From NCBI GenBank assembly GCA_937951895.1, contig CALFER010000038.1, positions 67,029 through 131,028 on the forward strand: a stretch of DNA of 64,000 bases. Direction: 5' to 3'. This document shows positions 2,611 to 64,000 of this stretch, piece after piece. The position numbers were made by a program, and so were the translations under genes. This DNA is from an uncultured bacterium (GTDB lineage Bacteria; CSSED10-310; CALFER01). The notes under the pieces are model-generated. The model did not search any database, was not told where the DNA came from, and worked only from the letters and a program-made list of their open reading frames with translations. The first letter of the stretch is position 1, and each line of letters begins with the position of its first letter.

Positions 2611-5600
2611 TTAAAAGAATCCCCACTCACAGAAGTCATAATCCCCTTCCAGAACCGCGGCGTCTGTCCGGAGATGCGCGAACCAGAAGCGGATGCCGGT
2701 GAACGTTCCGAAGTCTCCCTGAGGCCATTCGAAGGCAAGGAAGTTTTCGGAGGAGAACCCCTGCGGTACGGTTCGGGTCTGGAAGGTCACATCGGGTGTA
2801 TATCCAGGCCAGAACCAGTATTGACCCAGAACATCCAGAATCACCCAGCGCTGGAGTTCGACCGGTGCGGATGGGTTGAACACCATTCCGTATACCGAGA
2901 ATGGATCGCCGGCAGGCGGAGTCGTCAGTTCATTGTAAGTATACATGCTCAGGCTCGTATCGACATCCACGAGAATCCGGTCGGAGGTCTGTCCGGTTCC
3001 ATCGAGCAACCAGGGGATCAGGGTCTGGATGACAGCGCCCGGATTTTCCATCGATTCGAGGGGGAAGGCGAGATACGCTGTGCGATACGGGCTGGATTGG
3101 CCGGCGCCGGGGTATCGGATTCCGCACGGATTGTTGGCGGCCTTGAATGGCTGGTCGTCATCGAATGCCTCCTGCATGTCCGGATAGTCGTCTCCGGGAC
3201 GGACCGGATTTCCGGATGTAAAACTCACGACGGCGTCTTCGCGAGGCACGAGATTATCCGGCCACCAGTCAAAATCGAGTTTTTTGTTGTAGGTGTTGAT
3301 ATCCAGCGCCTGATGGGTGCCGATCGTGAAAGGATCCGCCGTTCCGCCCATCACTTCCTGATAGTAATCATCGTGTTCGACCCCGGCGATTCTCAGGTAG
3401 TTGTAGATGAAATAATCCGCCAACTGATCCGGATTTCCGGGATCCGCGGCAGGGTTGATCCAGACCAGGTCATCGGTGTTGGCAGGGGGTTGATGGAGAC
3501 GGTACATGAGTTCATGGGCTGTAATCATCAGATTGCCGCCGGCGTCCAGATATTGAATCATGGGCGGGATCACATAGTTCAGAAGATCTTTCTTGCCCTG
3601 CCCGGTTTGTCCGGTGAACCACAATACAGCATCGTACTGCTTCAGATCGTCAAATGTCGGGAACGACAGATTCACGAGGGGTTCCCATGGATACGAAAAC
3701 TGCTCGGTCGCATCGGGATCGACTTTGGGCGTCGTGTTCCAGACCTCGAACGGAATTCCGGCGGTCGCGAGAGCATCGCGGACCGGTTGATCCAGACTTG
3801 TAGTCTTCCCCTGGTAGCGGTCATCATCCCAGAACAGCAACCGGGCGGGCGTTACACGGGTATGAAACCGATGCGTCACGGAAGCAGATTCCGCACACAC
3901 AAACGTGATCTCGAACTCTGCGTCGTGCTGCAGAGGCGTATTGGCGGCGAGATTGATCGTGAAGGGGGAAACCGGTTGCGAGATCGCGTTCGTCTGGGTT
4001 GAGGGGTAGGATGCCGAGCCGTTGACGATGGAGACGTATGACGAGAGCGATGTGATGGTTGCGCTGATGGCGGTCGCCGGAGCGAACAGTGCGATCATAT
4101 CGACATTGAGCGATACCGTCTCACCCGCTTCCGGTCTGAAGTTGCCGTTACCTTGCCCGGAACCCTCGAAGACGGTCGCCCGGCGGACAGTCAATTCCGG
4201 ATCGAGTTCGGCCGTCATCGACGCGGGGACGTTGATTCGGCCGAATCCGGCATGGTAGTCGTATCCGGGGAATGACGCCTGATTGATGTCGACCGCTGTC
4301 GCGTTGATGCGATTCCGGATATCCGCGGGCGTGAACTCCCATCCGTTGGCACGCGCATATGCCACGAGCAGAGCAGCCTGCCCCGAGACATGCGGGCAAG
4401 CCATCGACGTGCCGACCCAGCCCCGGATCGCAAACTGTGTCATATCCGGGAAAGACCGGACTTTAATGATATTCTGGTAGATCTGATCCGTCGTTCCGCT
4501 CGAATCATAATCCGGTGAATCATATTGACCACTCGGTGCAATGACTTCGATCATCTGGCCGTACTGCGAAAAGTTCGTGACGGTTTCCGACATGGGATCC
4601 CCGGTGACAGCTGCGTTGTTGCTCGCGCCAACCGATACGACCGATTCGAATCCGGAGGGATACCCGACTCCGTAGAACACCGGATCCCACCCGCCGACAT
4701 CGCCGTCGTTCCCGGAACTTGCCGCGACGAACACACCGTGTTCGACCGCATACGCACAGGCCTCTTTCTGAACTTCCGGGCCCGCGCCCTGTCCGACGTA
4801 TCCCGAACCGAGACTCATGTTGATGACATCGGCGCCTTTATCAGCGGCATACAGAATCGCCGCGACCACATCATCCATATTGGATGTGCCATCCGGTCGT
4901 GCGGCTGTTTTCAGAATCATCAGTCGGCTTTCGAATGCCATGCCGACCGTCGACCTCATGTTCTCGGTTCCGCTGCCGTCATTGTTTGTGCTTTGGAGAA
5001 TCGTGCCGCTCACATGTGTGCCGTGACTGTCGTCATCGCTGGGGAACGGCGAGTCAAACACGAAGTTCCAGCCTTCATAATCGTCGATATAATCGTTCCC
5101 GTCATCATCGATCCCATTCCCGGGAGTTTCATCGGGGTTGGTCCAGATGTGGATGTTTTCGAAATCCGGCGCCTGAGCGAATTCAACGGGTTCGCCGTAA
5201 TGTTCCGTATCCGTCCATGTTTTGTAGGCGCATCCCGAGTCGATTACGGCAACGACCACATTGGGGTCACCGCCGTGCAGGGGGGGGGTGCTATCGAGAT
5301 CCCAGGCGGATTCCATACCGATTATCCGGAGATTCCAGAGGTGGTCGTTGACCCAGTACCAATCGTTCGGATTCCAGTTCAGCCTGAGATAATAGTTCGG
5401 GCACGCGCCCTGAATGCGCTCATCCGTCTGCATGCGTGCGATCAGTTTTTCGATTGTGCGCGGTTGATCTTCCATCACCTGAACCAGTACCCAGCCGATC
5501 TGAGGAAATGTCTTGAGAACACCTGCCCGATACTCGTCCAGCGCACCCGAGCACGCGTCGATCGATAACCCGGGATCGAACTTGATGAAGAGTTGTCCGG

Positions 5601-5718
5601 GAACAAAATGGATCCCCGGCTCGAGGTTTTTCAGAAGTGGTTCATGGCCGATTCGTGCGAATCCAGGCATGGACAGCATCGTGATCGCCAGTGAAACGAC
5701 AAGAATCGTGTGCTTCAT
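2611..5718 (-). CDS. Secreted subtilisin-like serine protease (S8 family) with long C-terminal extension ending in conserved C-terminal domain
   Basis: Signal peptide MKHTILVVSLAITMLSMPGFA. Catalytic triad motifs VAVIDSGC (Asp), HGTHVSGTI (His), GTSMACPHVSG (Ser). Start ATG at 5716-5718 with GGAGGG RBS upstream, shorter than the track ORF. The C-terminal 100 aa resemble the C-termini of four other secreted proteins in the window. Confidence 0.85.
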   Translation of the reverse strand: MKHTILVVSLAITMLSMPGFARIGHEPLLKNLEPGIHFVPGQLFIKFDPGLSIDACSGALDEYRAGVLKTFPQIGWVLVQVMEDQPRTIEKLIARMQTDERIQGACPNYYLRLNWNPNDWYWVNDHLWNLRIIGMESAWDLDSTPPLHGGDPNVVVAVIDSGCAYKTWTDTEHYGEPVEFAQAPDFENIHIWTNPDETPGNGIDDDGNDYIDDYEGWNFVFDSPFPSDDDSHGTHVSGTILQSTNNDGSGTENMRSTVGMAFESRLMILKTAARPDGTSNMDDVVAAILYAADKGADVINMSLGSGYVGQGAGPEVQKEACAYAVEHGVFVAASSGNDGDVGGWDPVFYGVGYPSGFESVVSVGASNNAAVTGDPMSETVTNFSQYGQMIEVIAPSGQYDSPDYDSSGTTDQIYQNIIKVRSFPDMTQFAIRGWVGTSMACPHVSGQAALLVAYARANGWEFTPADIRNRINATAVDINQASFPGYDYHAGFGRINVPASMTAELDPELTVRRATVFEGSGQGNGNFRPEAGETVSLNVDMIALFAPATAISATITSLSSYVSIVNGSASYPSTQTNAISQPVSPFTINLAANTPLQHDAEFEITFVCAESASVTHRFHTRVTPARLLFWDDDRYQGKTTSLDQPVRDALATAGIPFEVWNTTPKVDPDATEQFSYPWEPLVNLSFPTFDDLKQYDAVLWFTGQTGQGKKDLLNYVIPPMIQYLDAGGNLMITAHELMYRLHQPPANTDDLVWINPAADPGNPDQLADYFIYNYLRIAGVEHDDYYQEVMGGTADPFTIGTHQALDINTYNKKLDFDWWPDNLVPREDAVVSFTSGNPVRPGDDYPDMQEAFDDDQPFKAANNPCGIRYPGAGQSSPYRTAYLAFPLESMENPGAVIQTLIPWLLDGTGQTSDRILVDVDTSLSMYTYNELTTPPAGDPFSVYGMVFNPSAPVELQRWVILDVLGQYWFWPGYTPDVTFQTRTVPQGFSSENFLAFEWPQGDFGTFTGIRFWFAHLRTDAAVLEGDYDFCEWGFF

Positions 5719-5882
5719 ATCTGACCCTCCGTTTCCTGTTTTCTTTCTAGCGCACACATACCCCTTTGGCAAGATTCAGGGAAAAATTATACCGATGTTA
5801 AACCAATCTGACGCAGCCGGTATCGAATGGGTGGACAAGGAACGAGAACGTCCCCAACCAGATGGAGGTGCCAGTGAAACAC

Positions 5883-10795: not shown

Positions 10796-11095
10796 ATGGG
10801 CCCGATCTCCTTTGAAGAACGCTGCAAGGTTCCTATATATCTCAAGCTACGTCATTTTTGCAAGCCATCATTAGGCGACTATACAGGAGTCATGCCGATT
10901 CGTCAAGCGGGCAATTCGGCATCCGGCAGCCTGTTGTCAACCTGCGAAAATGCGTTTCCGAACTCTTGAGAAGCAAGCGTTTCCAATCCGCGACGGATTG
11001 ACAAAAACACGGATTCCATGATAGAATATTTTCTCGTTGCAGTGCACGATTCAAACCCATGTCCCATTGGTCGGTCCGCTCGAGGAGGTTTGGTC

Positions 11096-13891
11096 ATGGA
11101 TTCTTTTCGCTTCTTCATTCCCAGAGTGTGTTCTGCCCTGGTGCCGATCGTCGTCCTCCTGATCGCTTCACCCGCCATCGCTCAGATCGCCATCAACGAA
11201 GTCCTGTACGACCCGTCAGGCTCCGATACAGGATCAGAATACGTCGAAATCGTCAATACCTCCCCTTCCGCGATCGATATCACCGGCTTCGAACTCAAGC
11301 TGGCCGACAGCAACTACTTCACCTTTCCTGCTTTTTCCATCCCCGGAAACGGCCGGATCCTCGTTCATAACAATCTCGACGGCACGCACACTCCCACCGA
11401 GTTTTTCACGGGACCGCTCACAAACATGGGCAACACATCCGGCAGCGTCGCCTTGTTTTCCGGAGTGCATGCGACGACCAACATCGTCGATTTCATGCAG
11501 TACGGCACTTCCGGTCAGCAGTGGGAAAGCGCCGCCGTCGCGGCCACGATCTGGACGTCCGGCGATGCCATCGCGGATGCACCCGAAGGATTCTCGGTCA
11601 ATCTGTACCCGGATTCCGTCGACACGAACTCGAGTTCCGACTGGTCGCAGTGCACACCCAGTCCCCTCGACCCCAACTGCGCACCTCCGACGGCGACACC
11701 GACGGCTCCACCCACCGCCACCCTGACCGCCACTCCCACATCGACCGAACCACCGTCACCGTCGGCAACACCGACCGTGACATCGACCGGAAATCCTCCC
11801 ACACACACACCGACGCCCATTCCTTCTTCAACGTCCACGCCCACACTCTCCCCCAGCCCGACCCGAACCGCGACACCCTCCCCGACACGGACGCCGACAC
11901 CGACAAGAACCCCGACACCCACAGGAACCTCCCCGCCCACCCCGACTCCAACCTCGCCCCCTGTCGAATTTCCGGTTTCCATCAATGAAGTTTTTTATGA
12001 CCCGGCCGGCACCGATACGGGTCTCGAGTGGATCGAACTGATCAATACAGGCGCGCTGCCTGTCGATCTGACCGGATACGAACTGAAACCGGACGGAGCT
12101 CCTTACTATGTTTTCCCGTCGTTCATCCTCGGATCCGGATCGCGAGTCGCCGTTCATATCAATCTGTCGGGAACGGATACGGAATCCGAGTTATTCACAG
12201 GTCCATCTTCGAACATGGGTAATACAGCCGGCAGCATCGTGCTGTTCACAGGTTCGGTTCATTCCGCCGACACGATCCGGGATTTCATGCAGTATGGGGC
12301 AGGCGGGCAGAGTTGGGAGAGCACGGCGGTGAGTGCCGGTATCTGGACGGCGGGCGATACCGCCGCGGATATCGAGGAAGGTCTCTCCTTGAATTTGGAT
12401 CCGGACGGAAACGATACCGACAGCGCGTCGGATTGGTACGGTTGTGCACCGACACTGCTGACGGTGAACTGTGAATCATCCCCCCCGACATTCACTCCGA
12501 CCACAGGACCGGGATCGCCGACCACGACGCCTCCCCCTTCGCCAACCTCGACCCCCAGCCTTCGTCTCGGCGTCGTCATCAACGAACTGTTCCCCGACCC
12601 GACAGGCAGCGATACCGGTTTTGAATTTGTCGAGCTTTACAACAACAGTTCCACGCCGGTCAATCTGACCGGATACGATCTCAAAGCAGATGATGCCGCC
12701 TACTATACCTTCCCGGAATTCACGCTCGATCCGGATTCCTATGTCACGATTCACATCAACACGTCCGGGACGGACACCGAGACCGATCTGTACACCGGGG
12801 CATCCTCGAACATGGGCAATACGACAGGATTCATCGCCCTGTTCAATTCGACCACGCATGGCTCATCCACTCTCATCGATTACATCGAGTATGGTGCCGG
12901 TGGTCAGACATGGGAATCGAGTGCGGTTTCGGCCGGCATCTGGACGGAGGGCGATTTCGCCCAGGCAGCCGTCGAAGGGGAATCGATCAACCTTTGTCCG
13001 AACGGCCACGATGTCAATCTCGGATCAAACTGGCTGACCGATCTTCCGACGGCCGGGAACGCCAATACATGCTCAGCGCCGCCCCCCTCACCCACAGCCA
13101 CACCGACCACGGGACCAACCTCGACACCAACGATCACACCGACGCCGCATCCGACGGTCGAACCGGTCATTCAGATGGCCGGCTTCGGATCGACCCATTA
13201 CCGGATCGCCACAGGCGGTCGCATCCAGTTCATTGCATGGATCACTGATCCGGATCAGAACGTGGATGCAGTCGAGGTGTCCTATGCCGGATTACCGCTG
13301 TTCGAGTTAGAGGATGATGGCCAGCATGGGGATTTCGGGGCGGGTGATGGTCTGTACGGCTATCAGTTGGAACTTTCACCGGCAGGATATGCTCCGGCAG
13401 GAACACCTCTCCGGCTGCTTTTCCGGATCGTCGCATCCGACCGGGACGGGTACGACAGCGTGCCCTGGCCGCTTCTTTCAGTCTCAGGCGGATCAGGGGG
13501 ATTCGAGTCACCGGACATTCCATCCTGGTGGCTCAGCGCGTCCACACGGGCACCGGCGGCGCAAGCGGACGCACCGGACATTTTCATGGCGGGATACCTG
13601 GATTCGCGTGTTTCGGCCGCGAGCGGCGGGACGCTGAAAATCGTCGCGGTGACCCAGGGGATTCATCCTGTCTCGTCGGTCGAGATCTTCATCAACGGGA
13701 TCGCGACGGGAGTGTTTTTGCGGGACGACGGTATGAATGACGATTTCTCTCCCGGAGACGGTGTCTTCGGTTTGAGAATCCCTCTCTCGCCCGGCAGCCT
13801 GCCCGCCGGCGATTATCTGATCCAACTGCAGGCCGTCGATGTGACAGGCACTGCCAGTGATCTCTGGCCCTATCTGACAACCGGCGACTGA
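11096..13891 (+). CDS. Secreted protein with three lamin-tail-domain (LTD) repeats separated by Pro/Thr-rich linkers
   Basis: RBS GAGGAGG then ATG at 11096. Signal peptide ends AIAQIA. Three copies of the LTD signature I(N)E(V/L)(L/F)YDP.G.D.G.E(Y/W/F)(V/I)EL.N....(V/I)DLTGY.LK.......Y.FP.. appear at about 11.17, 11.97 and 12.57 kb, each followed by a PT-rich linker. Confidence 0.8.
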   Translation: MDSFRFFIPRVCSALVPIVVLLIASPAIAQIAINEVLYDPSGSDTGSEYVEIVNTSPSAIDITGFELKLADSNYFTFPAFSIPGNGRILVHNNLDGTHTPTEFFTGPLTNMGNTSGSVALFSGVHATTNIVDFMQYGTSGQQWESAAVAATIWTSGDAIADAPEGFSVNLYPDSVDTNSSSDWSQCTPSPLDPNCAPPTATPTAPPTATLTATPTSTEPPSPSATPTVTSTGNPPTHTPTPIPSSTSTPTLSPSPTRTATPSPTRTPTPTRTPTPTGTSPPTPTPTSPPVEFPVSINEVFYDPAGTDTGLEWIELINTGALPVDLTGYELKPDGAPYYVFPSFILGSGSRVAVHINLSGTDTESELFTGPSSNMGNTAGSIVLFTGSVHSADTIRDFMQYGAGGQSWESTAVSAGIWTAGDTAADIEEGLSLNLDPDGNDTDSASDWYGCAPTLLTVNCESSPPTFTPTTGPGSPTTTPPPSPTSTPSLRLGVVINELFPDPTGSDTGFEFVELYNNSSTPVNLTGYDLKADDAAYYTFPEFTLDPDSYVTIHINTSGTDTETDLYTGASSNMGNTTGFIALFNSTTHGSSTLIDYIEYGAGGQTWESSAVSAGIWTEGDFAQAAVEGESINLCPNGHDVNLGSNWLTDLPTAGNANTCSAPPPSPTATPTTGPTSTPTITPTPHPTVEPVIQMAGFGSTHYRIATGGRIQFIAWITDPDQNVDAVEVSYAGLPLFELEDDGQHGDFGAGDGLYGYQLELSPAGYAPAGTPLRLLFRIVASDRDGYDSVPWPLLSVSGGSGGFESPDIPSWWLSASTRAPAAQADAPDIFMAGYLDSRVSAASGGTLKIVAVTQGIHPVSSVEIFINGIATGVFLRDDGMNDDFSPGDGVFGLRIPLSPGSLPAGDYLIQLQAVDVTGTASDLWPYLTTGD
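11690..11960 (+). repeat. Low-complexity Pro/Thr-codon tandem repeats (ACNCCGACN-type) inside the LTD protein gene. Similar tracts occur at about 12480-12560 and 13075-13150
   Basis: Reiterated cgacaccgac / ccgacacc units encoding PTATPTAPPTATLTATPTSTEPPSPSATPTVTSTGNPPTHTPTPIPSSTSTPTLSPSPTRTATPSPTRTPTPTRTPTPTGTSPPTPTPTSPP. Confidence 0.6.
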
Positions 13892-20876: not shown

Positions 20877-23330
20877 TCATCTCGGTCCGAAACCGAATGT
20901 CCAGGAACTGATTCCATCCGGGCCACCGAGCAATTCGGTCAGTGAGGCGTTCATCATACCACCCCAGAAGGTGATCCCGTCCAGAGACGCATTGCCGGTA
21001 TCCGGCCAGTCGAACATGGGCAGAATCATGCAGTCGCTATGGCCATGGATCAGTGTGACCGGTTGCCAGTCCAGATCATGCGTCCATGTCGGATGAAACC
21101 AATATTCCGAGCCGATCTGGAGAATGACGAACAATGCGGCATCGACCGGAGTCGCGTGATCAGATCCCAGAGTGGCTTTCAGATAACAGGGATCACCCGG
21201 TGAGAATCGATGCGACGGCATCTCGAGGACAACACCGGTCACAGGTGCTGAAGGCGTCGGCAGAGTGGGAGGCGACAATTGCGTCGAGGCGTGGATGAAA
21301 GCGTCGATTCCGTATAAATCACCATCAACCACATGCAGCACATTCGATGAATCGATCACAGAATCGCTCCCGCTGGAGCAGTTTACTCGATCGACGATTC
21401 TTTCCGATGACCAGGTTCCGTTGTATTTGTAAAAGTGTTCAATTGAGCACTGATCGGTGGAAAACACTCTTTTATGAAACATAATATGCGGATTACCCTG
21501 AACATCGAAAACGAGATCCGGAAATTCGTAATAATCCCGGTTCGGAATCGCTTCGTATTCCCAGCCATAGGCAGTTCGTGTCATGAAATACAACGTGGGC
21601 CAGTAAATTTGCTGATAGACAATGCAAATCCTTCCCCCACGATCCAGTTCCATATCGAAGGCTTCCACCTCGGAACGATCCAGATCAACAACCCATCCGG
21701 ATTCGCTCCGGTAGAGGCATCTGAGGCTGGCGTCTTCCATTCTATGACTCAACCATGGAACTCCCTGTGCATCAATGAGCAGTTTTGTCGGGAGAGCATA
21801 GAATTCATATTCAGCGACCGGTTCGATCGTCCAGTTTTCACCTGTGTTATATGCATAATACGTCACATGTCGTGACTCCGGTGATCTCTGGTCGAAACTG
21901 ATGCCGATCGTGCCGTCCGGACCAACCGCAATGTTGGTTTCCGTACAGGGACCACCGGACATGAGAGTCTCAAATTCCCACCGTCCCGCGACCATACGCC
22001 CAAACTGAAGCGCTTCCTCACCCGCAATCACCATCACCGGTTGATCACCGGCCGCGATAGCTATCGAAGACTCCATTCCTTTGTCAGCCACGATCGTTGA
22101 ATTCCAATCGCCCGATAAATCTGTATCAAATGCAATATGGACAGGACAGGCAGAGTCACCCACAAGCGAGTGGCTGATATACAAATGATCGGATGAATCG
22201 ACAGCAAGTGACGGCAGGTATCCATTGATCGCAGAACAGGCGATATATTCTCCGGTCCAGGAATCATCATTCTGTTCTAGATACCGCAAGTCAGGATAGT
22301 TCTGGTATGCCAGGCGGAGCATCCCGGTTCCTCCTGACAACCAAGCCCTGCAAGGTGAGTTAAAATCAGTATCCAGATGCTCCTCGTTCCATATCGTTGC
22401 TTCGCGGTAGAAATGCGTTAATGCATAATCGGCGCCGAGAATGATCACATGTGCGTCTTCCCCGTCAATAACCATCGACAGAACATCTCGTGAGCCGCTG
22501 TAAAAAGGTTCATGGTACCAGGTTCCGCCCTCCTGATACGACAAATACATCTGATCCGCCGTTTCCGTGAAAAGCGCGTAAGCCACATACGGATTATTCG
22601 CACTGTCCAATGCAATCGCCCATGAGCCAACAAGCGGGCTCTGACCCACAGATTCAGTATTTACAACCATCCCCTCTGTACTCACCGTTGCGTAATAAAG
22701 TGTCTCCCGCGGTATGTACTTTACGTAAACCATTCTGATTACATCATCGCTTCCCATGGCTGCTTCTGCTGAATACGATTCGGAATCAATCAGTTGCGAT
22801 GTCCAGATCGAATCCATCCAAATCCCGTGCCGGAGTGAATTAGCACGGCCTCCGAACACCACATGCATGCGATCATTCGAATCGAACATACACGCGTAGA
22901 TCCTGTTGATCCTGTCGACATCCGTTTCCACGATCTCGGAATGCCACACCGCACTCTCCCGTTTGAAGACGCGGATGCCCATCGAATCGAAGCATATGAT
23001 ATGCGGAGTGTCACTCGAGTCAAAAGAAAGATGGATGTCACAAGCCGAGTCGGGCAAATCCGATACGATTTCAGATTGCCATTCATCGCCAACCCGTGAA
23101 AAGTAACTCAGAAAATAGCCCAATGTCCCCTCACGGTCAGAGAGTGCGATTGCTGCATGGAGTTGATTCTGATGATCGACCGCGAACATACTCACGATGT
23201 ACGAGTCCATAGCATCGGGTTTCCACAGCGTTTCGATTGTCCAGTCATGTGCGAACAAGACAGACCCGATCGACATCAGGATGAAGGACACCAACACAAT
23301 GCGATATCTCGAGCCAGCAACATTCACCAT
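20877..23330 (-). CDS. Secreted repeat (probable beta-propeller-type) protein, paralog 1, with conserved C-terminal domain
   Basis: GGAGG RBS and ATG at 23328-23330. Signal peptide IVLVSFILMSIGSVLFA. About 45-aa repeats of the type W..E.I....s...Ai..D..G.pHi.y. C-terminal block ...DAALFVILQIGSEYWFHPTWTHDLDW...ITFWGGMMNASLTELLGGPDGI is shared with four other proteins. Confidence 0.7.
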   Translation of the reverse strand: MVNVAGSRYRIVLVSFILMSIGSVLFAHDWTIETLWKPDAMDSYIVSMFAVDHQNQLHAAIALSDREGTLGYFLSYFSRVGDEWQSEIVSDLPDSACDIHLSFDSSDTPHIICFDSMGIRVFKRESAVWHSEIVETDVDRINRIYACMFDSNDRMHVVFGGRANSLRHGIWMDSIWTSQLIDSESYSAEAAMGSDDVIRMVYVKYIPRETLYYATVSTEGMVVNTESVGQSPLVGSWAIALDSANNPYVAYALFTETADQMYLSYQEGGTWYHEPFYSGSRDVLSMVIDGEDAHVIILGADYALTHFYREATIWNEEHLDTDFNSPCRAWLSGGTGMLRLAYQNYPDLRYLEQNDDSWTGEYIACSAINGYLPSLAVDSSDHLYISHSLVGDSACPVHIAFDTDLSGDWNSTIVADKGMESSIAIAAGDQPVMVIAGEEALQFGRMVAGRWEFETLMSGGPCTETNIAVGPDGTIGISFDQRSPESRHVTYYAYNTGENWTIEPVAEYEFYALPTKLLIDAQGVPWLSHRMEDASLRCLYRSESGWVVDLDRSEVEAFDMELDRGGRICIVYQQIYWPTLYFMTRTAYGWEYEAIPNRDYYEFPDLVFDVQGNPHIMFHKRVFSTDQCSIEHFYKYNGTWSSERIVDRVNCSSGSDSVIDSSNVLHVVDGDLYGIDAFIHASTQLSPPTLPTPSAPVTGVVLEMPSHRFSPGDPCYLKATLGSDHATPVDAALFVILQIGSEYWFHPTWTHDLDWQPVTLIHGHSDCMILPMFDWPDTGNASLDGITFWGGMMNASLTELLGGPDGISSWTFGFGPR

Positions 23331-23856: not shown

Positions 23857-24543
23857 TCAACTGACTACCCCGAGCCAATCCTTGAAGAGGAAGATGAAAC
23901 GGCCGATGGCCAGCGAAATACGAGCCATGACGGTGAGTCCGAAGGAAGCCCCGAATCCGATCATGACCATCAGAATACCGAAGTTGCTGATTGGCCTCAG
24001 AACACCCTTCTGTTCGGTCGAGAAGAAGAAATAGATCAGCGTGGCGAGTGTCGAGAGCAGGATGACGATGGTCCAGAAACCGGGCCAGAACTCGGCGAGC
24101 TGTGCGCGTGTCACGATGGACGCTTCGAGCTGCCGCAGGATGCCGGCTTCAAAGGATGCCGGAATCGAGATAGCGGTATAGTACCCCATCGTCAATCCGA
24201 TCGGGATCCGCACCATCCAGGAAATCTTCGGGATGAAGCGTGTGATGTACAGCGCACCGACCATCATCGGAAGAATGATGAAGAAGTTGGCATCGTTGAA
24301 GGGATTCAGCACCGCGGTGGAAAAACCGTCCTGTTTGACCATTTTTCCTGCATTCACCAGCGGATCGATCATCATCGGAACAACGACGTTGAAGTAGGTC
24401 AGAGTGATCGAGTAGCCGTTCGCGACGCCGATGTAGAGATGCTCGGCGATTCGATAAAGTGGATTGTCACGCCATAGAAAGGAGAAGATGGCGATAGTCA
24501 GGATGGCGGCATTCCAAGTCCAGAATTCGGTTGCGATGTTCAT
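23857..24543 (-). CDS. Polytopic integral membrane protein (about 6 TM), hypothetical
   Basis: Start MNIATEFW at 24543 with GGAGGGGAG RBS. ATGA overlap with the upstream gene. Hydrophobic throughout. Confidence 0.6.
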   Translation of the reverse strand: MNIATEFWTWNAAILTIAIFSFLWRDNPLYRIAEHLYIGVANGYSITLTYFNVVVPMMIDPLVNAGKMVKQDGFSTAVLNPFNDANFFIILPMMVGALYITRFIPKISWMVRIPIGLTMGYYTAISIPASFEAGILRQLEASIVTRAQLAEFWPGFWTIVILLSTLATLIYFFFSTEQKGVLRPISNFGILMVMIGFGASFGLTVMARISLAIGRFIFLFKDWLGVVS

Positions 24544-25445
24544 ACTCCCCTCCGATTTTCGTGCCGGCGCTGCATGAAGTAGCAGACATTGCCCAGAATC
24601 ACCATGAGGATGATGGCGATATGTGTGGTCGACTGAGCACTCATACCTTCGCATGCCATCCGGCGTTCCTGATCCGAAAACTTCTCCTGAACAAGTTTTT
24701 CGTATTCCGCGGCGCCTTTCATGCCCTCGATCATGCCGGTGAGTTGTCCGGAGTCGAGATACGGGTAGAAGTCCGCGACAGACACGGCCGTGACACCCGC
24801 TGTGACTTTGATGCCGTAGCGAGCCTGCGCGTACGCCACATAGGTGATGGGCAGTGAGTTCGCCGCGATCGATGCGATCATGTCCATATCGCGGTAACTC
24901 TTGATGTTCGTCATCATCGGCTGAAGATTCAGATCATTCCCGTAGAAATCTTTCGGAAATACATCGAAGATGTTTTCACCCAGACCCAGAATCGGAACGA
25001 TGGGAGGGGGTTTCCATCCGAGGAACACATAGTCGCGACCGTAGATGATCCGTTCTTCATCGGTCGTAGCGCGATTGTTGAATTCGCTGACTACCTGGTT
25101 AAAGGCCTGTTCGGCCAATCCGAGCGAATTGGCGTAAAGGCACATCGCCAGCACCTTGATACGGCGGTGGAAACTATGACGGAGCAGTGACACGAGCATG
25201 GGGTAGAGTTCGGGCTGATCCTGCGGGCTCAGATCCGCCGAGATCAGCATGGCGTTGTGTTCTTTGGGGAATTTTTCAACTGCATCGAACAATGCCTGGG
25301 TGGTACGTTCGGAAACACGAATCGGGAGATCGAACGGGAAGATGATCGGGATGATCATGACCAGCGCGACGATGACATAGATCACACGCCGGTCGACACC
25401 CATCATCTTCTGCCAGACAGTCTGAATTTCGACTCGGTTGCTCAT
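24540..25445 (-). CDS. Bitopic membrane protein (N- and C-terminal TM helices flanking about 230-aa extracytoplasmic domain), hypothetical
   Basis: TM VIYVIVALVMIIPIIF near the N-terminus and THIAIILMVILGNVCYF near the C-terminus. ATGA start/stop overlaps with both neighbouring genes. Confidence 0.6.
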   Translation of the reverse strand: MSNRVEIQTVWQKMMGVDRRVIYVIVALVMIIPIIFPFDLPIRVSERTTQALFDAVEKFPKEHNAMLISADLSPQDQPELYPMLVSLLRHSFHRRIKVLAMCLYANSLGLAEQAFNQVVSEFNNRATTDEERIIYGRDYVFLGWKPPPIVPILGLGENIFDVFPKDFYGNDLNLQPMMTNIKSYRDMDMIASIAANSLPITYVAYAQARYGIKVTAGVTAVSVADFYPYLDSGQLTGMIEGMKGAAEYEKLVQEKFSDQERRMACEGMSAQSTTHIAIILMVILGNVCYFMQRRHENRRGV

Positions 25446-26368
25446 TCGTCACCTCCCAGCCACGCGCGTTCTATTCCGAAAATGATTTTGAAGGATGTCG
25501 CGACTGCTCCAAGACCGACGCCGATCATGATACCGCGCTTGGAAGCCATGTTGGGGACATCGAGAATCCACTGGCGGAGTTCATAGACACCGGGGATGTA
25601 GGCGGTTGCAAGCGGGATCTGGCCGAGCATGACGATGAACGCCGAAACCAGCAGAACACCGGCATGCAGGTTGCGCATACGGAATGCCCGGTAGGCCGCC
25701 GAACACATGTAGAAGGCGAGCATCGCAAACATCGTGGATCCGCAGGGGACCAGAATACCTTCAAAAAGCTGCTGAATATGGATCCTGAAATCTTTTTTAA
25801 ATGGCACCGGCTTGCCGGTGACCGGGCTGATCATTTCGAACTGAATCCCGTTGCGGCGCGCATTTGATGCCCGCAGTTCGATCTCGTCACGCAACGATGA
25901 TGCCGCATAGCGCGAAAGAGGGGCTTCGACGTTTGAAGGCAACGGCATCACCGCCCGGGCCGGGTCAACGAATTTATCGGGTGAGGCTTTGAACTGGCCC
26001 ATTTCCGCTTCGTTCTGGAACGCATATACCTGGCCATCGTGCGCAAGGAGGACCAAGCCACCGAAAATCGTCGGCAGGCTTTTTTCTCCGCGCACTCCGC
26101 CGAACAGACCGATGAAGGATGAAATGAAGAGCGAGACCAGTGTGACGTAACTGTATTGCCAGTACCGGGATTTGTTCCGGATCTTCACCATGTGGTGGAA
26201 GATGAGGCTTCCGAGACCCAGAATGATGGCGAAAGCGCCGACGATCAGGAGCAGTTTGTTCCGGAGCAGATTGTCGATTTCGTGGACGGATTCCTTGCCC
26301 ACGAAGACCGATATGCCGCCCCAGATCGCGAAGATGAACAACAAATACAAGGGCAGATTTCGTTTCAT
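25442..26368 (-). CDS. Integral membrane protein, hypothetical
   Basis: MKRNLPLYLLFIFAIWGGISVFV..., multiple TM segments at both ends. RBS GAGGTAGG upstream of the ATG at 26368. Confidence 0.6.
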   Translation of the reverse strand: MKRNLPLYLLFIFAIWGGISVFVGKESVHEIDNLLRNKLLLIVGAFAIILGLGSLIFHHMVKIRNKSRYWQYSYVTLVSLFISSFIGLFGGVRGEKSLPTIFGGLVLLAHDGQVYAFQNEAEMGQFKASPDKFVDPARAVMPLPSNVEAPLSRYAASSLRDEIELRASNARRNGIQFEMISPVTGKPVPFKKDFRIHIQQLFEGILVPCGSTMFAMLAFYMCSAAYRAFRMRNLHAGVLLVSAFIVMLGQIPLATAYIPGVYELRQWILDVPNMASKRGIMIGVGLGAVATSFKIIFGIERAWLGGDE

Positions 26369-26376
26369 GACCTACC

Positions 26377-27657
26377 TCATTTCACCAGCAGATAGGGAGA
26401 GAGATCCCAATTGAATACGATGGCCAGTATCGAGAACACGACCATGCAGATCATAAAGATCAGCTTGCCGTAATCCTGTGCTTTGAGTGTTCCGAGAAGG
26501 AGTGGTTCCCGCGAGAGATACGCGGAAGCCGCATAGAGTTCTTCGCCGATCAGTGTGTAATCGCACGATGTGATGAAGAAGGGGAGCTGAGCCGGCGTAT
26601 CCGTTCCCGCGATCTGAACCGCTCCGGTCGCCGCTCCGGTTTCAGACATAACCAGCGCTTCCGCCCAGAACATGCCCATGAAGAAGATCGTGGCCGGTTT
26701 CTGCCGGACCATGATGCCATCGACGCCGGCGGCATAGGCAAACTGGTCCGGAACGAGGAAGAACACGGAGTTCGGATCGAACGCGTCCGGCCGTCCCTCG
26801 GATGCATAGGTCTCACGGACAATCTCCCGAGCAATGGTGTAAACAATCGGATCGCGGTTCGGGCAGATGATCTTGACATCGTAATGGACAGTTCTTCGGA
26901 CAACTTCTCCCAGGATATTCAATGATGCCAGTGTGGCGACATCCTCGATGGATGACGTGCCGGGAATATAAAGAACCGGCTTTCCCATCTCCGTCGCACG
27001 CCCGATGGCGTCTTCCACCGCATTCAATCCGGAAATCCTCCGGACAAAAAGCTCCACGCCCCGTCGCGCCGCATTGATGAACATGACCAGGATCAGCACG
27101 AACACCGCGATCGCCACCACGATCGGCATCTTCCCGGTCCGAAACCAGTGATCTCGAGCTTCGATCGGTCCGGCGATGTCCGACGTCATGGAAGCCTCAC
27201 CGTAGAGTGCTTTGACCCGGAAATGGAACTGGGTGAAATTGGGAACTCCGGAGACCTGATAGGAGGTCAAAACGGTGCGGGTAACCTGTTTCCAGAGACC
27301 ATCCGGAGTTTGCATCTCGAGGATGTAGGCATCGGGTTTCGCTTGAGACACATCATGCGGCCAGCGGATCGAGATCGCATTACCCGTGTCGCTCGGGACA
27401 TCCATCGCAACGACGACCGGGAGTGTCGCCCCCGGAGGCACTGTCGGAACCGGAGCAGGCTCGGCCGGAACGGCGTCATCGCCCGCGACTGGTTCAGTGA
27501 TCGGTTCCGGCGCGGCATCTGTCTGAGATGTCTGTTGGTCCTGGCCGATCGCATGCGGTGCACAGGGCATGCAGACGGCTAGAAGACACACAATTCCCGA
27601 CATGATCGCACGCCATACCCGACCGGTTGAACCGGTGCGTATGGTGTGTAGTGTCAT
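26377..27657 (-). CDS. Fn3-domain membrane protein, tandem paralog B
   Basis: AGGAGG RBS then ATG at 27657. Signal peptide. Pro-rich segment. Fn3-like block (ISIRWPHDV...YILEMQTPDGLWKQV...FHFRVKALYG). A TM helix, then a conserved 230-aa domain and a C-terminal TM. About 60-70% aa identity to 27742..28929. Confidence 0.65.
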   Translation of the reverse strand: MTLHTIRTGSTGRVWRAIMSGIVCLLAVCMPCAPHAIGQDQQTSQTDAAPEPITEPVAGDDAVPAEPAPVPTVPPGATLPVVVAMDVPSDTGNAISIRWPHDVSQAKPDAYILEMQTPDGLWKQVTRTVLTSYQVSGVPNFTQFHFRVKALYGEASMTSDIAGPIEARDHWFRTGKMPIVVAIAVFVLILVMFINAARRGVELFVRRISGLNAVEDAIGRATEMGKPVLYIPGTSSIEDVATLASLNILGEVVRRTVHYDVKIICPNRDPIVYTIAREIVRETYASEGRPDAFDPNSVFFLVPDQFAYAAGVDGIMVRQKPATIFFMGMFWAEALVMSETGAATGAVQIAGTDTPAQLPFFITSCDYTLIGEELYAASAYLSREPLLLGTLKAQDYGKLIFMICMVVFSILAIVFNWDLSPYLLVK

Positions 27658-27741
27658 GTGTGGTATGAACCTCCTCTTATTGTTTGAAACATGAATGAAT
27701 TTCAGTTTCCGAATAGGTCTCAGCACGTGTCGAAGAGCCTT

Positions 27742-33301: not shown

Positions 33302-35845
33302 CTACTCCGGACCGATGCTGAATTCCTGCTGCCAGATCGGACCCATAACTTCCGAGAGATCCGGGCTGAGAAGCGCGCCATAGAGATGAAGCGATTCGAT
33401 TGAGAAGGTGATCGGATCGGTGAAGTTGAAATGCAGGATCGGAACCGTCGTCCAGCCGGATGGGACGGAAAGGGGTTCGAAATCAAATGTCTGAGACCAG
33501 GAGGGGTGGAAGAAATACTCACCCTGTATCTCGAGGCATGAAACGACAACGGCGGAATCCAGCGGCTCGGAGGGATTACAGATTTCCAGATCGAACAGGA
33601 ACGGCATCCCGGACGTGAAATGCGTTGCATTCAGAGTGCCGGTGGTTTCCCATTCCGTGCAATTCGTCTGGTTATTCGGAGTATGCAGAATCACATCGCC
33701 TTCCATGATTCGTGTCTCCACACAGGCAGGTTTCATTCCCCCGGGGAGGCCGAGCAAGGCGGTTTCGACATGAATATTCGTTCTTCTCCAAACCAATTCG
33801 GGAGTCCACGCAGTGTCCTTCTTCCAGATGGTCATCGATTCCATGCCATCCCAACTACCGGCGGCAGAGGTCCACACCGTATCGTCTGCGGTCACCAGTA
33901 AGCCAGGCTGATACATCGTCATCATCGGCGCAATCTGCTCGAAGGACCAACCGGAGTTCGTCCGTGTTGCCTGGAATAGTGCATTGTATTGAATGAATGC
34001 TGCATGCGGGTATTCAAGATCATCGAATACCAGCTTTGCATTGGATAATTGATTGGTCGTGATATCGATCGTTCGAGTTTCAATTTCCCAACCCGAGTCC
34101 CCCAGTGTCCCATAATACATGGCGTTGACTTCCTGCGTACCGATGGATGTTCGACCGATGCTGAAGAAGTGAATCGTCCCATCCGGACTTTTTTCCAGAT
34201 CGACTGTGGCCCCGAATACTTGATCGTATTGCGAACCGAGATCGATCGGTTGATCCACCCATCCGTCGGATGTATAGAATGCATGTCGCAAGGCAACTCG
34301 ATTTTCCAGATCCGACTGGAAGTAGACAGCATGGGGCGATCCGTCCATCGAGTAGACGAGTTTTCGTGAACAAGTTGTTTCCGTCACATGTCGCACAAGC
34401 TGACGTGACCAAACTCCGTCTTTCCGTTCCCATAGAAACAGATCAAACGCGGATGTCCCATCAAAAAACTGAAGCAGTATTCCGATGTTTCCGAAGGGAT
34501 CCAGGGCGATATCGATTTCGTCCGTATTACTAACCCCGTCCTGAAGGGTATGGATCTGAGAAACATCAGACTCACGAGTCGCGATTTTCAATTGTGAAGG
34601 AGTGAGGAACGCACAATAAATCGTGCCGTCGGGATCGGCGCAGGCAGAGGCTGCGCGAATCTGTCCCCCTCCCGATTTAATGTGTGTCAATGTCCAACCG
34701 TCCGTTCCTTTCATCCCATAGTACAACATCTGATCATCTTCCACGTTTCGATGCACCACGATGGCGGTCTGCAGAAATCCCGATCGATCATATCCGGCAG
34801 CAATCGATCCCCCCTCACCGGTTTCAAGAATCCGAGTCTCGGAGTTCCAGTTGTCACCGACTTTCCAAGCCTGCACGAGATTCTGTCCGGATGAAAAGAA
34901 CAGGTGCGACGTGTCGGTCTCGTCGATCAGCAGTTCCGCTCCCGGATCCGATATCTCCATCACGCCATCGAAGGGGTACCCGCTGATCCATCCGGATGAG
35001 GTGCGCGTTCCGTAGAGCAGTCGAATCGGTCCGCCACGCGCGCCGTACGACGCGAGAACCCGGGGTTGTCCGGACGAGTCCTTCACGAGTCTGATCGAAG
35101 TGAACTTCTGGAAGATGTCGAGTGTCTCTATTGTTTCCGGGGTGCCGTTCGCCACAACCGGGCTCATGTAGTGCAACATGCAGGGACTCCCCGATGTCGC
35201 ATACCAGGCACTGAAGGCTATTCCGAGAACCCCCGGAGAGGTCTCCATCACGGCGATATTGTCAAAAAGGGTCGAAGCGGTGTACACAACTTCGGACTGT
35301 AAACCCGAAGGAGTGGTGTAAAGGTGCATCAGATCCACGTGTAACGACTCGATCAGCTTCATGTAAAACACATGAATGCACCCTGTCGAGTCCTTGAAAA
35401 AACCGACATTTTCAATGCATTGACCGGACGAATCGAGTGTCGCTGTATTCCAGGCCGAACCCGTGAATATCGCCAGTTTGACGGATCGGGTTGACAGATC
35501 GGTGAACACAATGATGGGATGATCCGAGTCGTCGAGCAGAGCACTCAGACCGGAAGCCGGAGATTCGCTGATCTCGTAAGTGATCCACTCGTTTCCCGAA
35601 TGATACATCGCCTGCACCGTGTCACCGGAGAGGAAAATCCAGGGATTGTTCTGAGCATCGAACAGGAGCGTATTCTGACCGGACAGTTCGAAGTTGTCCT
35701 GCCTGAAGAGATACTCTGAAGACCAGTTCGTCGAGGCCTGAACGTTTCCCATGATCGATGTCAGGCATGTAAACAGAACAAGGCAAATGAAAACGAACCG
35801 GGCATGCGTGGATGGAAATACACACAATCCCAACATCGATTTCAT
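33302..35845 (-). CDS. Secreted repeat (probable beta-propeller-type) protein, paralog 2, with conserved C-terminal domain
   Basis: AGGGAGG RBS then ATG at 35845. Signal peptide FVFICLVLFTCLTSIMGNVQA. The W..E.I repeat pattern recurs. C-terminal ...DSAVVVSCLEIQGEYFFHPSWSQTFDF...LHLYGALLSPDLSEVMGPI. Confidence 0.7.
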   Translation of the reverse strand: MKSMLGLCVFPSTHARFVFICLVLFTCLTSIMGNVQASTNWSSEYLFRQDNFELSGQNTLLFDAQNNPWIFLSGDTVQAMYHSGNEWITYEISESPASGLSALLDDSDHPIIVFTDLSTRSVKLAIFTGSAWNTATLDSSGQCIENVGFFKDSTGCIHVFYMKLIESLHVDLMHLYTTPSGLQSEVVYTASTLFDNIAVMETSPGVLGIAFSAWYATSGSPCMLHYMSPVVANGTPETIETLDIFQKFTSIRLVKDSSGQPRVLASYGARGGPIRLLYGTRTSSGWISGYPFDGVMEISDPGAELLIDETDTSHLFFSSGQNLVQAWKVGDNWNSETRILETGEGGSIAAGYDRSGFLQTAIVVHRNVEDDQMLYYGMKGTDGWTLTHIKSGGGQIRAASACADPDGTIYCAFLTPSQLKIATRESDVSQIHTLQDGVSNTDEIDIALDPFGNIGILLQFFDGTSAFDLFLWERKDGVWSRQLVRHVTETTCSRKLVYSMDGSPHAVYFQSDLENRVALRHAFYTSDGWVDQPIDLGSQYDQVFGATVDLEKSPDGTIHFFSIGRTSIGTQEVNAMYYGTLGDSGWEIETRTIDITTNQLSNAKLVFDDLEYPHAAFIQYNALFQATRTNSGWSFEQIAPMMTMYQPGLLVTADDTVWTSAAGSWDGMESMTIWKKDTAWTPELVWRRTNIHVETALLGLPGGMKPACVETRIMEGDVILHTPNNQTNCTEWETTGTLNATHFTSGMPFLFDLEICNPSEPLDSAVVVSCLEIQGEYFFHPSWSQTFDFEPLSVPSGWTTVPILHFNFTDPITFSIESLHLYGALLSPDLSEVMGPIWQQEFSIGPE

Positions 35846-47773: not shown

Positions 47774-49465
47774 TCAGTTCAGGGAGAAGTCGAATGTCGC
47801 AACGTCACTGATCAACGCATCGATTCCGAGCAATCCCGGGGTGAACAGAGCGGCATAAAAATGCATGGGACCGAATGGGGACACCGCCGGCATGATGAAG
47901 TCTGGAATAATCGTTTTCGAGGAAACCCCTGCCGGGATCGAGATCGTTTCATGCGACAGTCCGTTTCCGATCGCCTGCCACGCGGGATAACTGAAAAACT
48001 GCCCCGCGACATCGAGCAGTACATACAGGTCCGCCGTCATCATCCCTCCCGGATTCTGCATCCCCAGCGTCAATCCGCACGGATCACCTTCACCGAAAGC
48101 CGTCGCCGGCATTTCCAGTTCGATATCGACAAGTCCTCCACCCCCCTGCGGCATCCTGAGACTCATCAGGAACATATCGACAACACCGGGATCGATTCCC
48201 CAATTCTCGGCCCACACCACCCGACTCCCGTCCCGCGTGATCGAGGCATGGGTCTCCTCCCAGTATTCAGCCGTCGTGTTGGGTGTTTTCGCCAGATAAA
48301 CGACTCGGGCGGCGGCGTCGTCGAGCGTCACGAGAACGATCGAGCGATCGAGCCAGTTTTTCTCGGGCAGAAAAGGCTGTATATACGTCGAAACAACGGC
48401 ATATCCCGCGTGATTGCACGAAACATGGACGCCCGATTGAAGTCCGTACGGCGAGCCGAAGTCGTAAAACAGACGGATGAGGGGAGTACGATTCGTCCCC
48501 TCGTAACTGCCTCCCGCTTCGAGGATCGGCTGAGTCGTGAAATCGATCGGGATCATGTCGATGAAATCCGTGTTGATGTTCTGCATGACGATCACCTCAC
48601 GCCCCTGCGCATCGAGTCCGACATCCGAATGCGCCGTCGCGTAATCCAGCCGGTGAAACTGCGTCAGATCGCGTGTCGCCATGACCAATCCCGCGAGAGG
48701 TCCCCCGTTGTTGTAATCGGATCCGATCAGAAGATAGTTGCCGTGCCATGACATGCCGACCCAGTCGATCAACCGTTCGTTTTCCTGAAGCGTGCGCACG
48801 CCGAGTGTCGATGCAGTCAAACGATCCCAGCAGAATACATACAGGGGTTCGTAGTCTTCCTGCACATCGCCCTGCAGCATCAAACCCCAGTACCGCATGT
48901 CGACGGACGGTTCACCCTCGTCTTTGCATGTGATCCGATAGACATTCGATGACGCGATCAGAGGGCCGATGATCGGATCCTGCGTGAAATCCACGATGAT
49001 CGTCAGATCACCGGTCGTCACGTCGAGCGTCACGATGCTGAAATCGCTGAATCCCCACAACAGATTTGCATTGGAGGGGTCCCAGCGCGGCTCGGACAGT
49101 GAGGGTTGGATCACGAGATTCGCGGTTGTATTGAAGGGGATCGAAGCCGTCGAGTAGACGTCCCAGCCATCCGATGGATCGAGCAGAATCCTGGACTGGT
49201 CGACGTTGAACGGATCGAATCGGGAGTATTCATGCCGCGAATGGGAGTAATCGCGCGTGGTGGCCTTGAACAGAATCGTCCCGAAGGACGGCTCGAAATA
49301 CTCGACGCCGGGATCCGGTTCGGCCAGGGGCACGAGCGGATATCTCGGGTTGTTGCCCGACAGGGGATCCGGAACTTCAGTGAACGCATAGTCCGGCGCA
49401 TACTCCAGCGCGAGCGTGACCGGAACAGCGATGAATACAATGCTCAGCACGATTGATCTCATCAT
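47774..49465 (-). CDS. Secreted repeat (probable beta-propeller-type) protein, paralog 3, with conserved C-terminal domain
   Basis: GGAGGA RBS then ATGATG at 49465. Signal peptide MMRSIVLSIVFIAVPVTLA. C-terminal ...DLYVLLDVAGQFFSYPAWQ...MHFYAALFTPGLLGIDALI. Confidence 0.7.
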   Translation of the reverse strand: MMRSIVLSIVFIAVPVTLALEYAPDYAFTEVPDPLSGNNPRYPLVPLAEPDPGVEYFEPSFGTILFKATTRDYSHSRHEYSRFDPFNVDQSRILLDPSDGWDVYSTASIPFNTTANLVIQPSLSEPRWDPSNANLLWGFSDFSIVTLDVTTGDLTIIVDFTQDPIIGPLIASSNVYRITCKDEGEPSVDMRYWGLMLQGDVQEDYEPLYVFCWDRLTASTLGVRTLQENERLIDWVGMSWHGNYLLIGSDYNNGGPLAGLVMATRDLTQFHRLDYATAHSDVGLDAQGREVIVMQNINTDFIDMIPIDFTTQPILEAGGSYEGTNRTPLIRLFYDFGSPYGLQSGVHVSCNHAGYAVVSTYIQPFLPEKNWLDRSIVLVTLDDAAARVVYLAKTPNTTAEYWEETHASITRDGSRVVWAENWGIDPGVVDMFLMSLRMPQGGGGLVDIELEMPATAFGEGDPCGLTLGMQNPGGMMTADLYVLLDVAGQFFSYPAWQAIGNGLSHETISIPAGVSSKTIIPDFIMPAVSPFGPMHFYAALFTPGLLGIDALISDVATFDFSLN

Positions 49466-63109: not shown

Positions 63110-64000
63110 TCACCAGGGTGAACAGGTGATATCGATCGAGTCGATTCCGTCTTCGCCGCCGATGATCCGAGACAGGTCCGGGGTCATGAGCGCGGCCCAG
63201 AATGTGAGGTGGAATTCGGTGTCGGTCGTGAATTCATGATCCAGTATCGTGTATTCCGCACCGTATCGCGCGGGGAGCATTTCGATCGGGTGCGCATGGA
63301 ATTCCTCGGTCCACGAGGGATAAAACCAGAACCGGTCGCCGAATTGCATCGCGACGACCAGCGCGGCAGGGATAGTGTCGAGGCTGTCGTGAAAAACGAA
63401 CGCTTTCAGCCAGCCGAGCGTAATCCAGTTGTCCGGATTCGCACATAATCGGACACCGGCTGCTTCAGGAGACATACTCAGAACCATCAGGCTGTTGCAT
63501 GGATATAAATCTCCATAATACAATGGGGTTACATTCACAGTGGTCGTGGCATGGATGCGATCGTCCTTGTCAATACACTGGTCGATATCGGAATATATGT
63601 ACATCGGTGCGGATTCCGTCTTCCGGTATCCATGTTCCATGAATCCGTAGGAATGAGTGAGCCCCTGATTCCTTCCCAGTAGATGAAAAAAACCTCGCTG
63701 ATCCAACTGAAGGGATACCTTGCTATAAGAATAAACATAACCTCGGTCCAGTACAAGCTTCGGATCCCCGGCAGATCGTTTCGTGTATCCGACTACAAGG
63801 TCGCCCCCTCCGGGACAGCCGCTGTGACTTGTATGAGCCAAGTGAATATCCCCATCCGGTCCCAGCATGAAATCCATATCCGAACTTTCGGAATGACAGG
63901 AGGATACTTCGGTGATCTGCCACTGTTCTTCAGTTCTGACTCCATAATAACTCAAGTTTCGCACCCCTGCATAAACAGTTGAGGATAAAGTATTTCGGCG
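63110..64000 (-). CDS. Secreted repeat protein, paralog 4 (5' end beyond window), with conserved C-terminal domain
   Basis: The ORF stays open to the window edge (the track's M at 63964 is a GTG codon and the frame continues upstream). C-terminal ...ALVVAMQFGDRFWFYPSWTEEF...HLTFWAALMTPDLSRIIGGEDGI. Confidence 0.6.
   Translation of the reverse strand, partial: RRNTLSSTVYAGVRNLSYYGVRTEEQWQITEVSSCHSESSDMDFMLGPDGDIHLAHTSHSGCPGGGDLVVGYTKRSAGDPKLVLDRGYVYSYSKVSLQLDQRGFFHLLGRNQGLTHSYGFMEHGYRKTESAPMYIYSDIDQCIDKDDRIHATTTVNVTPLYYGDLYPCNSLMVLSMSPEAAGVRLCANPDNWITLGWLKAFVFHDSLDTIPAALVVAMQFGDRFWFYPSWTEEFHAHPIEMLPARYGAEYTILDHEFTTDTEFHLTFWAALMTPDLSRIIGGEDGIDSIDITCSPW

Follow-up and report, generated by a model that had tools for sequence, protein, structure and literature searches.

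The 64,000-nt stretch of contig CALFER010000038.1 analyzed here (hereafter, the window), from an uncultured bacterium of candidate division CSSED10-310, encodes five proteins that share a C-terminal domain (CTD). All five genes lie on the minus strand, and the domain limits given are envelopes of a hidden Markov model (HMM). The first gene, assigned by Pfam matches, encodes an S8 serine peptidase (2611..5718, within the open reading frame [ORF] 2611-5772) whose CTD occupies 2614..2997. Cargo gene 2 (20877..23330) encodes a signal peptide and a beta-propeller-like repeat core, and the CTD of this BNR_4-like repeat protein lies at 20883..21266. Cargo gene 3 (33302..35845, ORF 33302-35881; start chosen to agree with the homologue P0007) encodes a signal peptide, a repeat core weakly related to that of cargo gene 2, and a CTD at 33308..33682. 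The product of cargo gene 4 (47774..49465, ORF 47774-49612) has a signal peptide, a core without a family match, and a CTD of the "FTMPAVSP..FYAA" subtype (47777..48157). The fifth gene extends from 63110 to beyond position 64000 and thus runs off the end of the window; its CTD lies at 63116..63481, and the fragment P0001 has the same sequence as its product. Signal-peptide-like N-termini were found in all four of the complete genes. The initial annotation had placed a shared domain at the end of these five proteins. Its presence was borne out in each of them, but its extent had been underestimated, the domain being approximately 120-127 residues long and beginning approximately 40 residues further upstream than had been proposed.

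The S8 protein consists of a signal peptide, a fervidolysin-like prodomain, a Peptidase_S8 catalytic domain, a region of approximately 400 residues, and the CTD. Both the Peptidase_S8 domain and the fervidolysin prodomain were matched in Pfam, and the catalytic motifs DSG, HGTH, and GTSMA could be read in the sequence. Residues ~530-900, between the catalytic domain and the CTD, gave no Pfam or NCBIfam match and were retained, with full-length coverage, in all orthologues of the phylum. The CTD of this protein is of a divergent subtype, with QRWV in place of LFV, Y in place of the conserved W59, and an insertion of 6 residues. An exact copy of the gene was present on a Logan contig.

When each C-terminus was compared by phmmer with the 680 six-frame ORFs of at least 50 residues in the window, two to four of the other four copies were recovered (E = 2.8e-4 to 2.4e-13), and nothing beyond the five copies was found among these ORFs. 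Two pairs (S8 with 63110 and 47774 with 63110) were missed directly and were joined via the copies of 20877 and 33302. In the window, a five-copy HMM retrieved just those five, with the next score at E = 1.8. Taken together, the pairwise and HMM results show that the similarity is real and far beyond chance, and the earlier claim that the five C-termini align was thereby confirmed. With the last 125 residues removed, the 20877 and 33302 cores were weakly related repeats (best E = 0.001), the 63110 core gave a borderline match to these two (best E = 0.019), and the S8 and 47774 cores were unrelated to the other cargo cores. The description of the cores as unrelated thus held for the S8 and 47774 proteins, but not for 20877 and 33302, with 63110 borderline. 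Concerted evolution within the genome was considered and rejected: the S8 CTD was 45-51% identical to S8-type CTDs elsewhere and 19-25% identical to its paralogues in the window.

An hmmsearch with the CTD profile, run exhaustively on 1.84 billion cluster representatives (50% identity), matched 2,279 proteins at E ≤ 1e-3 and 1,192 at E ≤ 1e-10. Among the best 150 of these proteins, 150 of 157 domain matches ended no more than 5 residues from the end of the protein, and 94 of 115 ended at most 2 residues past the last aligned residue. A terminal strand, [FW]xFG[FYW]GP, was conserved throughout the family and was followed by 0-2 residues, contrary to the initial statement that the ends are not conserved. 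The CTD occurred once per protein and many times per genome. Searches with domain alignments returned short fragments from tiny contigs, unnamed or labelled "hypothetical"; because one lies at a contig start and others begin inside linker or cargo, these short matches are fragments and not stand-alone domain genes. The exceptions to terminal placement were of two kinds. In two independent proteins (P0151 and the ORF at 598-1956 of the CAYYMM contig L013), the CTD stood straight after the signal peptide, with the cargo behind it. In one orthologous group (L005, 4002-7418; L012, 1211-4711; L017, 7169-10870), it was internal; behind it came a Pro/Thr-rich (PT) linker and then approximately 100 residues of a conserved domain that contains Cys, ends in KGW[CG]VAG, and has no family assignment. 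The great majority of copies were thus C-terminal, with these rare N-terminal and internal ones as exceptions.

A hydrophobic, signal-like N-terminal segment was present in 83 of 97 full-length members, and a lipobox-like motif in only 4 of the 97. About half of the members had a PT linker ahead of the CTD; in the 38 residues around the domain start, Pro, Thr, and Ser together made up 44% of residues vs. 21% in the cores (97 members). The last 45 residues of the 97 members contained no transmembrane helix or basic tail (maximum 18-residue hydropathy, 1.54; mean, 0.80), as had been reported for the five window copies. In the 73 full-length members assigned to Pfam families, the most frequent cargo was Beta_helix (17), Chlam_PMP (11), NosD (10), DUF1565 (5), and Peptidase_S8 (4). 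FG-GAP, Kelch, and BNR repeats were also found, together with one peptidase each of families C25, C1, C11, M28, and M6, and few glycoside-hydrolase-like families were among the top Pfam families. Many types of signal-peptide-bearing cargo thus carry the domain, in agreement with the original view of a tag on unrelated secreted proteins.

The S8 CTD, modelled by AlphaFold2 with a 60-sequence alignment, was all-beta with eight strands (pLDDT 89.8, pTM 0.80); the five-sequence alignment gave a pLDDT of 69.7 with similar strand positions. Foldseek searches with the model returned no match at E < 1e-3 and template-modelling (TM) scores of at most 0.53, the weak matches including GH2 Ig-like domains and sandwiches that bind glycans or lipids, such as a porphyran carbohydrate-binding module (CBM), the carbohydrate-binding domain of Wzt, MD-1/MD-2, and RhoGDI. 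The predicted fold is a generic Ig-like (E-set) sandwich. When conservation was mapped in the numbering of the S8 CTD, positions 53-56 (Y-W-F-W) were at least 92% aromatic, P57 was 97% conserved, and position 59 was 100% aromatic. Conservation was 88-97% for F82, W84, and P85 and 90% for both F97 and A100, and positions 98 and 118 were 90% and 93% aromatic, respectively. G23, D24, and N34 were 83-92% conserved, and P35 and G36 were each conserved in 55%; position 26 was usually F, with C in several members. The motif hhhL[DEQ][IV]GxxYWFWPxW, the FW[GA]A block, and the preceding GDP[CF] and NPG had been read correctly at the outset and proved to be the most conserved positions of the whole family. 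Because residues of a beta-strand alternate between faces, some of the run of four aromatics at 53-56 would have to be exposed. From the strand order in the model, the NPG, WPxW, and WPD loops and the C-terminus would be expected to share one pole of the sandwich.

The domain was not matched by any known family in the Pfam and NCBIfam copies searched. Pfam-A and NCBIfam contained nothing over the C-terminal region of the five window proteins at E ≤ 1, and 60 domain-only sequences scanned against both at E ≤ 10 gave no consistent match; the stray ones were MG4 in two sequences and DUF11, A2M, and TIGR01451 in one each, all at E ≥ 0.03. In the same 60 sequences at E ≤ 10, no type IX secretion system (T9SS), PEP-CTERM, PPC, CARDB, or FlgD_ig model was matched in more than one member, PF18962, TIGR04183, and TIGR04131 were not matched at all, and the NCBIfam CTERM models gave no consistent match. 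No CARDB, DUF11, or MG match to the CTD rose above the curated (gathering) thresholds, and no Pfam CBM model was matched. PPC (PF04151) was likewise without a match in the window proteins; it is annotated in other S8 homologues and would thus have been recognizable in the S8 proteins. There was no Pfam match to dockerin, and the modelled CTD is predicted to have eight beta-strands and no helix. The best hit in a profile search of PDB sequences was an MG domain of cobra venom factor (E = 0.086). A control alignment of five type-A T9SS CTDs, drawn from S8 homologues that carry a PF18962 annotation, was related to the CTD by hhalign with a probability of only 0.14%. No description of the domain was found in the literature. 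The original proposal of an undescribed cargo tag or docking domain held in all its computationally testable parts, with no match to a known CTD family and no profile similarity to type-A T9SS CTDs; the tag or docking function itself is putative.

Comparison of the S8 protein with its relatives showed which elements take the C-terminal position. Full-length orthologues with 45-57% identity were named "S8 family serine peptidase [candidate division CSSED10-310]", and the CTD was left unannotated in their records. All recovered full-length relatives at 35% identity or more kept the CTD. P0205 (CAZUFC), of the same S8 subfamily, had two copies of another repeat where the CTD would be; this repeat holds the choice-of-anchor-X motif (NF041940) and also ends a lamin-tail-domain (LTD) protein of the window. 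The LTD protein (11018-13891, plus strand) has three lamin-tail domains with long PT linkers between them, and its residues ~740-957 form two copies of the ~110-residue repeat with the NF041940 motif. These choice-of-anchor-X-like repeats were rejected as relatives of the CTD (hhalign probability, 0.26%). Distant S8 proteases of other phyla ended in PF18962 (T9SS), FlgD_ig, CARDB, PPC plus SLH, or PKD. In addition, a beta-helix/NosD-like protein of the window (56510-59698, minus strand) had at its end a PT-rich linker and then PLPVPTSGPIGIGFLLLTLSFLLGGGLIFRKG, which comprises a motif, a transmembrane helix, and a basic tail. Tails with a PT linker, an [LV]P motif, a transmembrane helix, and RR or RK were also found at L001 18281-19132, L002 14596-15708, and L006 13173-14897. 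No NCBIfam CTERM model matched the tail of the 56510-59698 protein; it resembles PEP-CTERM and could represent another C-terminal sorting signal of the phylum, distinct from the CTD. These swaps at the end of S8 and beta-helix proteins indicate that the CTD fills a slot held elsewhere by anchoring or sorting elements.

CSSED10-310 is described as a rare, Gram-negative lineage and as sister to Acidobacteriota (PMC8248873). The pattern DV[FY]G[ESQ]YWF, derived from six close sequences and scanned against 185,579 species-representative genomes, gave 28 confirmed CTD loci in 10 genomes, a census that undercounts because a single narrow pattern was used. Four of the 10 genomes were named candidate division CSSED10-310 (JAFGLW and JAFGEQ, both from Zodletone sediment, JAFGMN, and PWNJ), four had no phylum label (CAZUFC, CAYYMM, CAZELM, and JBASEY), and the other two were metagenome-assembled genomes (MAGs) labelled, as deposited, Verrucomicrobiota (JAKQDD, L007) and Gracilibacteria (JAQVLK, L026). 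The CTD protein of L007 was orthologous to one from JAFGLW (676 bits). The presence of the domain in these two MAGs could be due to mis-binning, horizontal transfer, or a wider distribution. Copy numbers, which are lower bounds from biased samples, were at least 14 in 122 kb of CAZUFC, at least 12 in 85 kb of CAYYMM, and at least 11 in JAFGLW, compared with 5 in the 64-kb window. CTD genes were often grouped two to four together. The gene order of the first 17 kb of the window (FAD-oxidase/CCG, LTD protein, Arf-like, HEAT, RR-GAF-HD, small ORF, S8) was repeated on JAFGLW010000026 (Zod_Metabat.419, CSSED10-310). Together with the genome matches, this shared order assigns the window to a relative within CSSED10-310.

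Clustering of the ORFs of the 28 loci and the window revealed no conserved non-cargo neighbor of the CTD genes, and no recognizable secretion or sorting enzyme was encoded in the window. The cargo genes of T9SS and exosortase systems are also usually unlinked from their machinery, so this lack of linkage is uninformative. Some other features of the window adjoin CTD genes. An apparent operon of tandem DUF6754 proteins (449 and 428 residues) and three ORFs without a family match (23857-29028, minus strand) lies directly upstream of the CTD gene at 20877-23330, an arrangement absent beside CTD genes in other loci. A respiratory/sulfur cluster (41512-47712, minus strand) adjoins the CTD gene at 47774-49465 and encodes a rhodanese, a split Sulf_transp pair, cytochrome b561, and two multihaem cytochromes (MtrC-like and Cytochrome_cB). 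The region 1-20300 is rich in signalling genes, with two Ser/Thr kinases (one with TPR repeats), an FHA-DUF4388 protein, and an RR-GAF-HD protein.

The homology, position, and fold of the CTD, the diversity of its cargo, its taxonomic range, and the lack of a match to known families, as observed, leave us confident that it is a family of Ig-like domains of approximately 120 residues, unmodelled in the Pfam and NCBIfam copies searched, that ends varied Sec-exported proteins almost only in CSSED10-310 and unclassified MAGs. From these observations we infer a ligand, a surface localization, and a binding role for the aromatics. Our preferred but tentative reading is that the CTD is an autonomous module for non-covalent docking or retention at the cell surface, built around its aromatic cluster. 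The CTD protein would be exported and the sandwich would fold on its own. The domain would then bind a cell-envelope ligand (a surface glycan or lipopolysaccharide, or a surface receptor protein) through the conserved aromatics Y-W-F-W-P-x-W, F-x-W-P, and F-W. Binding of this kind would retain proteases, propeller proteins, and adhesin-like proteins of the beta-helix/PMP type at the surface of the cell. The attachment of an autonomous module by PT linkers, the conserved aromatics deduced to lie on both strand faces, and the N-terminal and internal placements are consistent with docking, as are the weak fold matches to glycan- and lipid-binding sandwiches and the anchors that stand in the same position in other proteins, and the rare copies away from the C-terminus favor it over a strict secretion signal. 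Several points weigh on the other side. Copies of this kind account for only approximately 4% of matches in the best 150 proteins and for 4 of 54 in the loci and the window. The position statistics rest on the best 150 of the 2,279 matched proteins, and aromatic exposure is deduced from strand periodicity alone. No ligand or receptor was identified, and docking leaves the crossing of the outer membrane unexplained. Finally, the tight constraint at the end, with 0-2 residues past the last strand, is equally expected of a C-terminal secretion signal.

In such a signal, the CTD would be the folded recognition element of an outer-membrane translocation and processing pathway of CSSED10-310, analogous to the T9SS CTD and of independent origin, and it may be cleaved off or serve for covalent attachment. 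We consider this possible, if unlikely. It would account for the approximately 96% of copies at the extreme C-terminus with 0-2 residues past [FW]xFGFGP (best 150 proteins), for a single copy per protein with at least 11-14 per genome in the biased 85-122 kb samples, and for a cargo spectrum resembling that of T9SS (C25, S8, and M6 peptidases, beta-helix, FG-GAP). PF18962 is found in the same position in homologous S8 proteases of FCB-type phyla (FCB, Fibrobacteres-Chlorobi-Bacteroidetes), and T9SS CTDs share the Ig-like fold (PMC8869499). The PMP/beta-helix cargo lacks an autotransporter barrel, so that some outer-membrane route would be needed, which also counts for a secretion signal. However, copies directly after the signal peptide and inside proteins fit such a signal poorly, the 28 loci and the window yielded neither a conserved non-cargo neighbor nor candidate machinery, and the CTD is longer than the classical T9SS CTD of 40-70 residues (PMC8869499). 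A very divergent T9SS CTD served by the canonical T9SS would also combine C-terminal position, Ig-like sandwich, and T9SS-like cargo. This is extremely improbable and was rejected, as the Pfam/NCBIfam scans and hhalign described above showed no profile similarity; moreover, T9SS is characteristic of the FCB superphylum (PMC8869499), whereas the host phylum is reported to be the sister of Acidobacteriota (PMC8248873).

A terminal beta-sandwich that carries conserved aromatics behind a PT linker is classic CBM architecture, and the CTD could in principle be a CBM-like module through which enzymes and adhesins are brought to a polymer or particle in the environment and not to the producer's own surface. 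The weak fold matches to GH2 Ig-like domains, the porphyran CBM, and the Wzt domain and the not strictly C-terminal position agree with this. We nevertheless think it quite improbable, because the cargo of the 73 members is mainly beta-helix/PMP proteins, propellers, and peptidases with few glycoside-hydrolase-like proteins, no Pfam CBM model was matched, and the fold matches are generic. It is still more doubtful that the CTD is a passive Ig-like cap, or a C-terminal pro-domain like PPC, that aids the stability or folding of its cargo and has no sorting or docking role. The generic Ig-like fold would suit a cap, and C-terminal beta-sandwich pro-domains such as PPC are common on secreted proteases and were seen in S8 homologues. 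Yet the same domain is attached to very different folds via flexible PT linkers, so that a cargo-specific folding role fits poorly, and neither the strong conservation of the aromatic cluster in all cargo classes nor the strict terminal position and high copy number would be expected of a cap.

Shared C-terminal tags (LPXTG/sortase, PEP-CTERM/exosortase, and the T9SS CTD) have previously been used to decode bacterial surface and secreted proteomes. That diverse secreted proteins can share a C-terminal tag is thus already known; what is new is a domain outside every family tested. CSSED10-310 is known only from metagenomes, and we know of no shared C-terminal tag system described in it. With the CTD, a large share of its exported proteome can be listed in a single step. 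The domain also points to a partner that could be sought by phyletic profiling, be it a translocon or a ligand or receptor at the surface. A translocon would constitute a new secretion route, and a surface ligand a new anchoring principle for the Gram-negative envelope. To our knowledge, the T9SS of the FCB superphylum is as yet the sole system that uses a folded C-terminal beta-sandwich as an export ticket. That such a ticket was invented independently here, with the CTD as the recognition signal of an undiscovered outer-membrane secretion and attachment pathway of CSSED10-310, is a speculative suggestion that we consider rather unlikely.

Compared with known systems, the CTD most resembled the T9SS CTD (PF18962/TIGR04183) in its location at the extreme C-terminus of unrelated Sec-exported cargo (peptidases, beta-helix proteins, and repeat adhesins), in its Ig-like beta-sandwich, and in its occurrence once per protein and many times per genome. 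It differed in showing no sequence or profile similarity, in its length (approximately 120 residues vs. 40-70; PMC8869499), in a host phylum that apparently falls outside the FCB superphylum, and in its rare N-terminal and internal copies. The likeness to dockerin-cohesin and SLH systems was one of functional logic only: a modular terminal domain with a Pro/Thr-rich linker on varied secreted cargo, mostly but not exclusively C-terminal and repeated over dozens of genes per genome. In contrast to the Ca-binding helical dockerin and the helical SLH domain, the CTD is an all-beta Ig-like sandwich in its model, no cohesin-like partner was identified for it, and its organism is predicted to be Gram-negative (PMC8248873). 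PEP-CTERM and other tags of the transmembrane type likewise follow a PT-rich linker and mark the C-terminal end of secreted proteins, whereas the CTD is a folded domain of approximately 120 residues without a transmembrane helix, basic tail, or short signature motif. Among E-set/Ig-like sandwiches (CARDB [PF07705], DUF11, macroglobulin MG, and GH2 Ig-like domains), none of which gave a match reaching the curated threshold, the CTD family was set apart by the YWFWPxW/FxWP/FW aromatic signature and the strict terminal position, both of which are specific to it.

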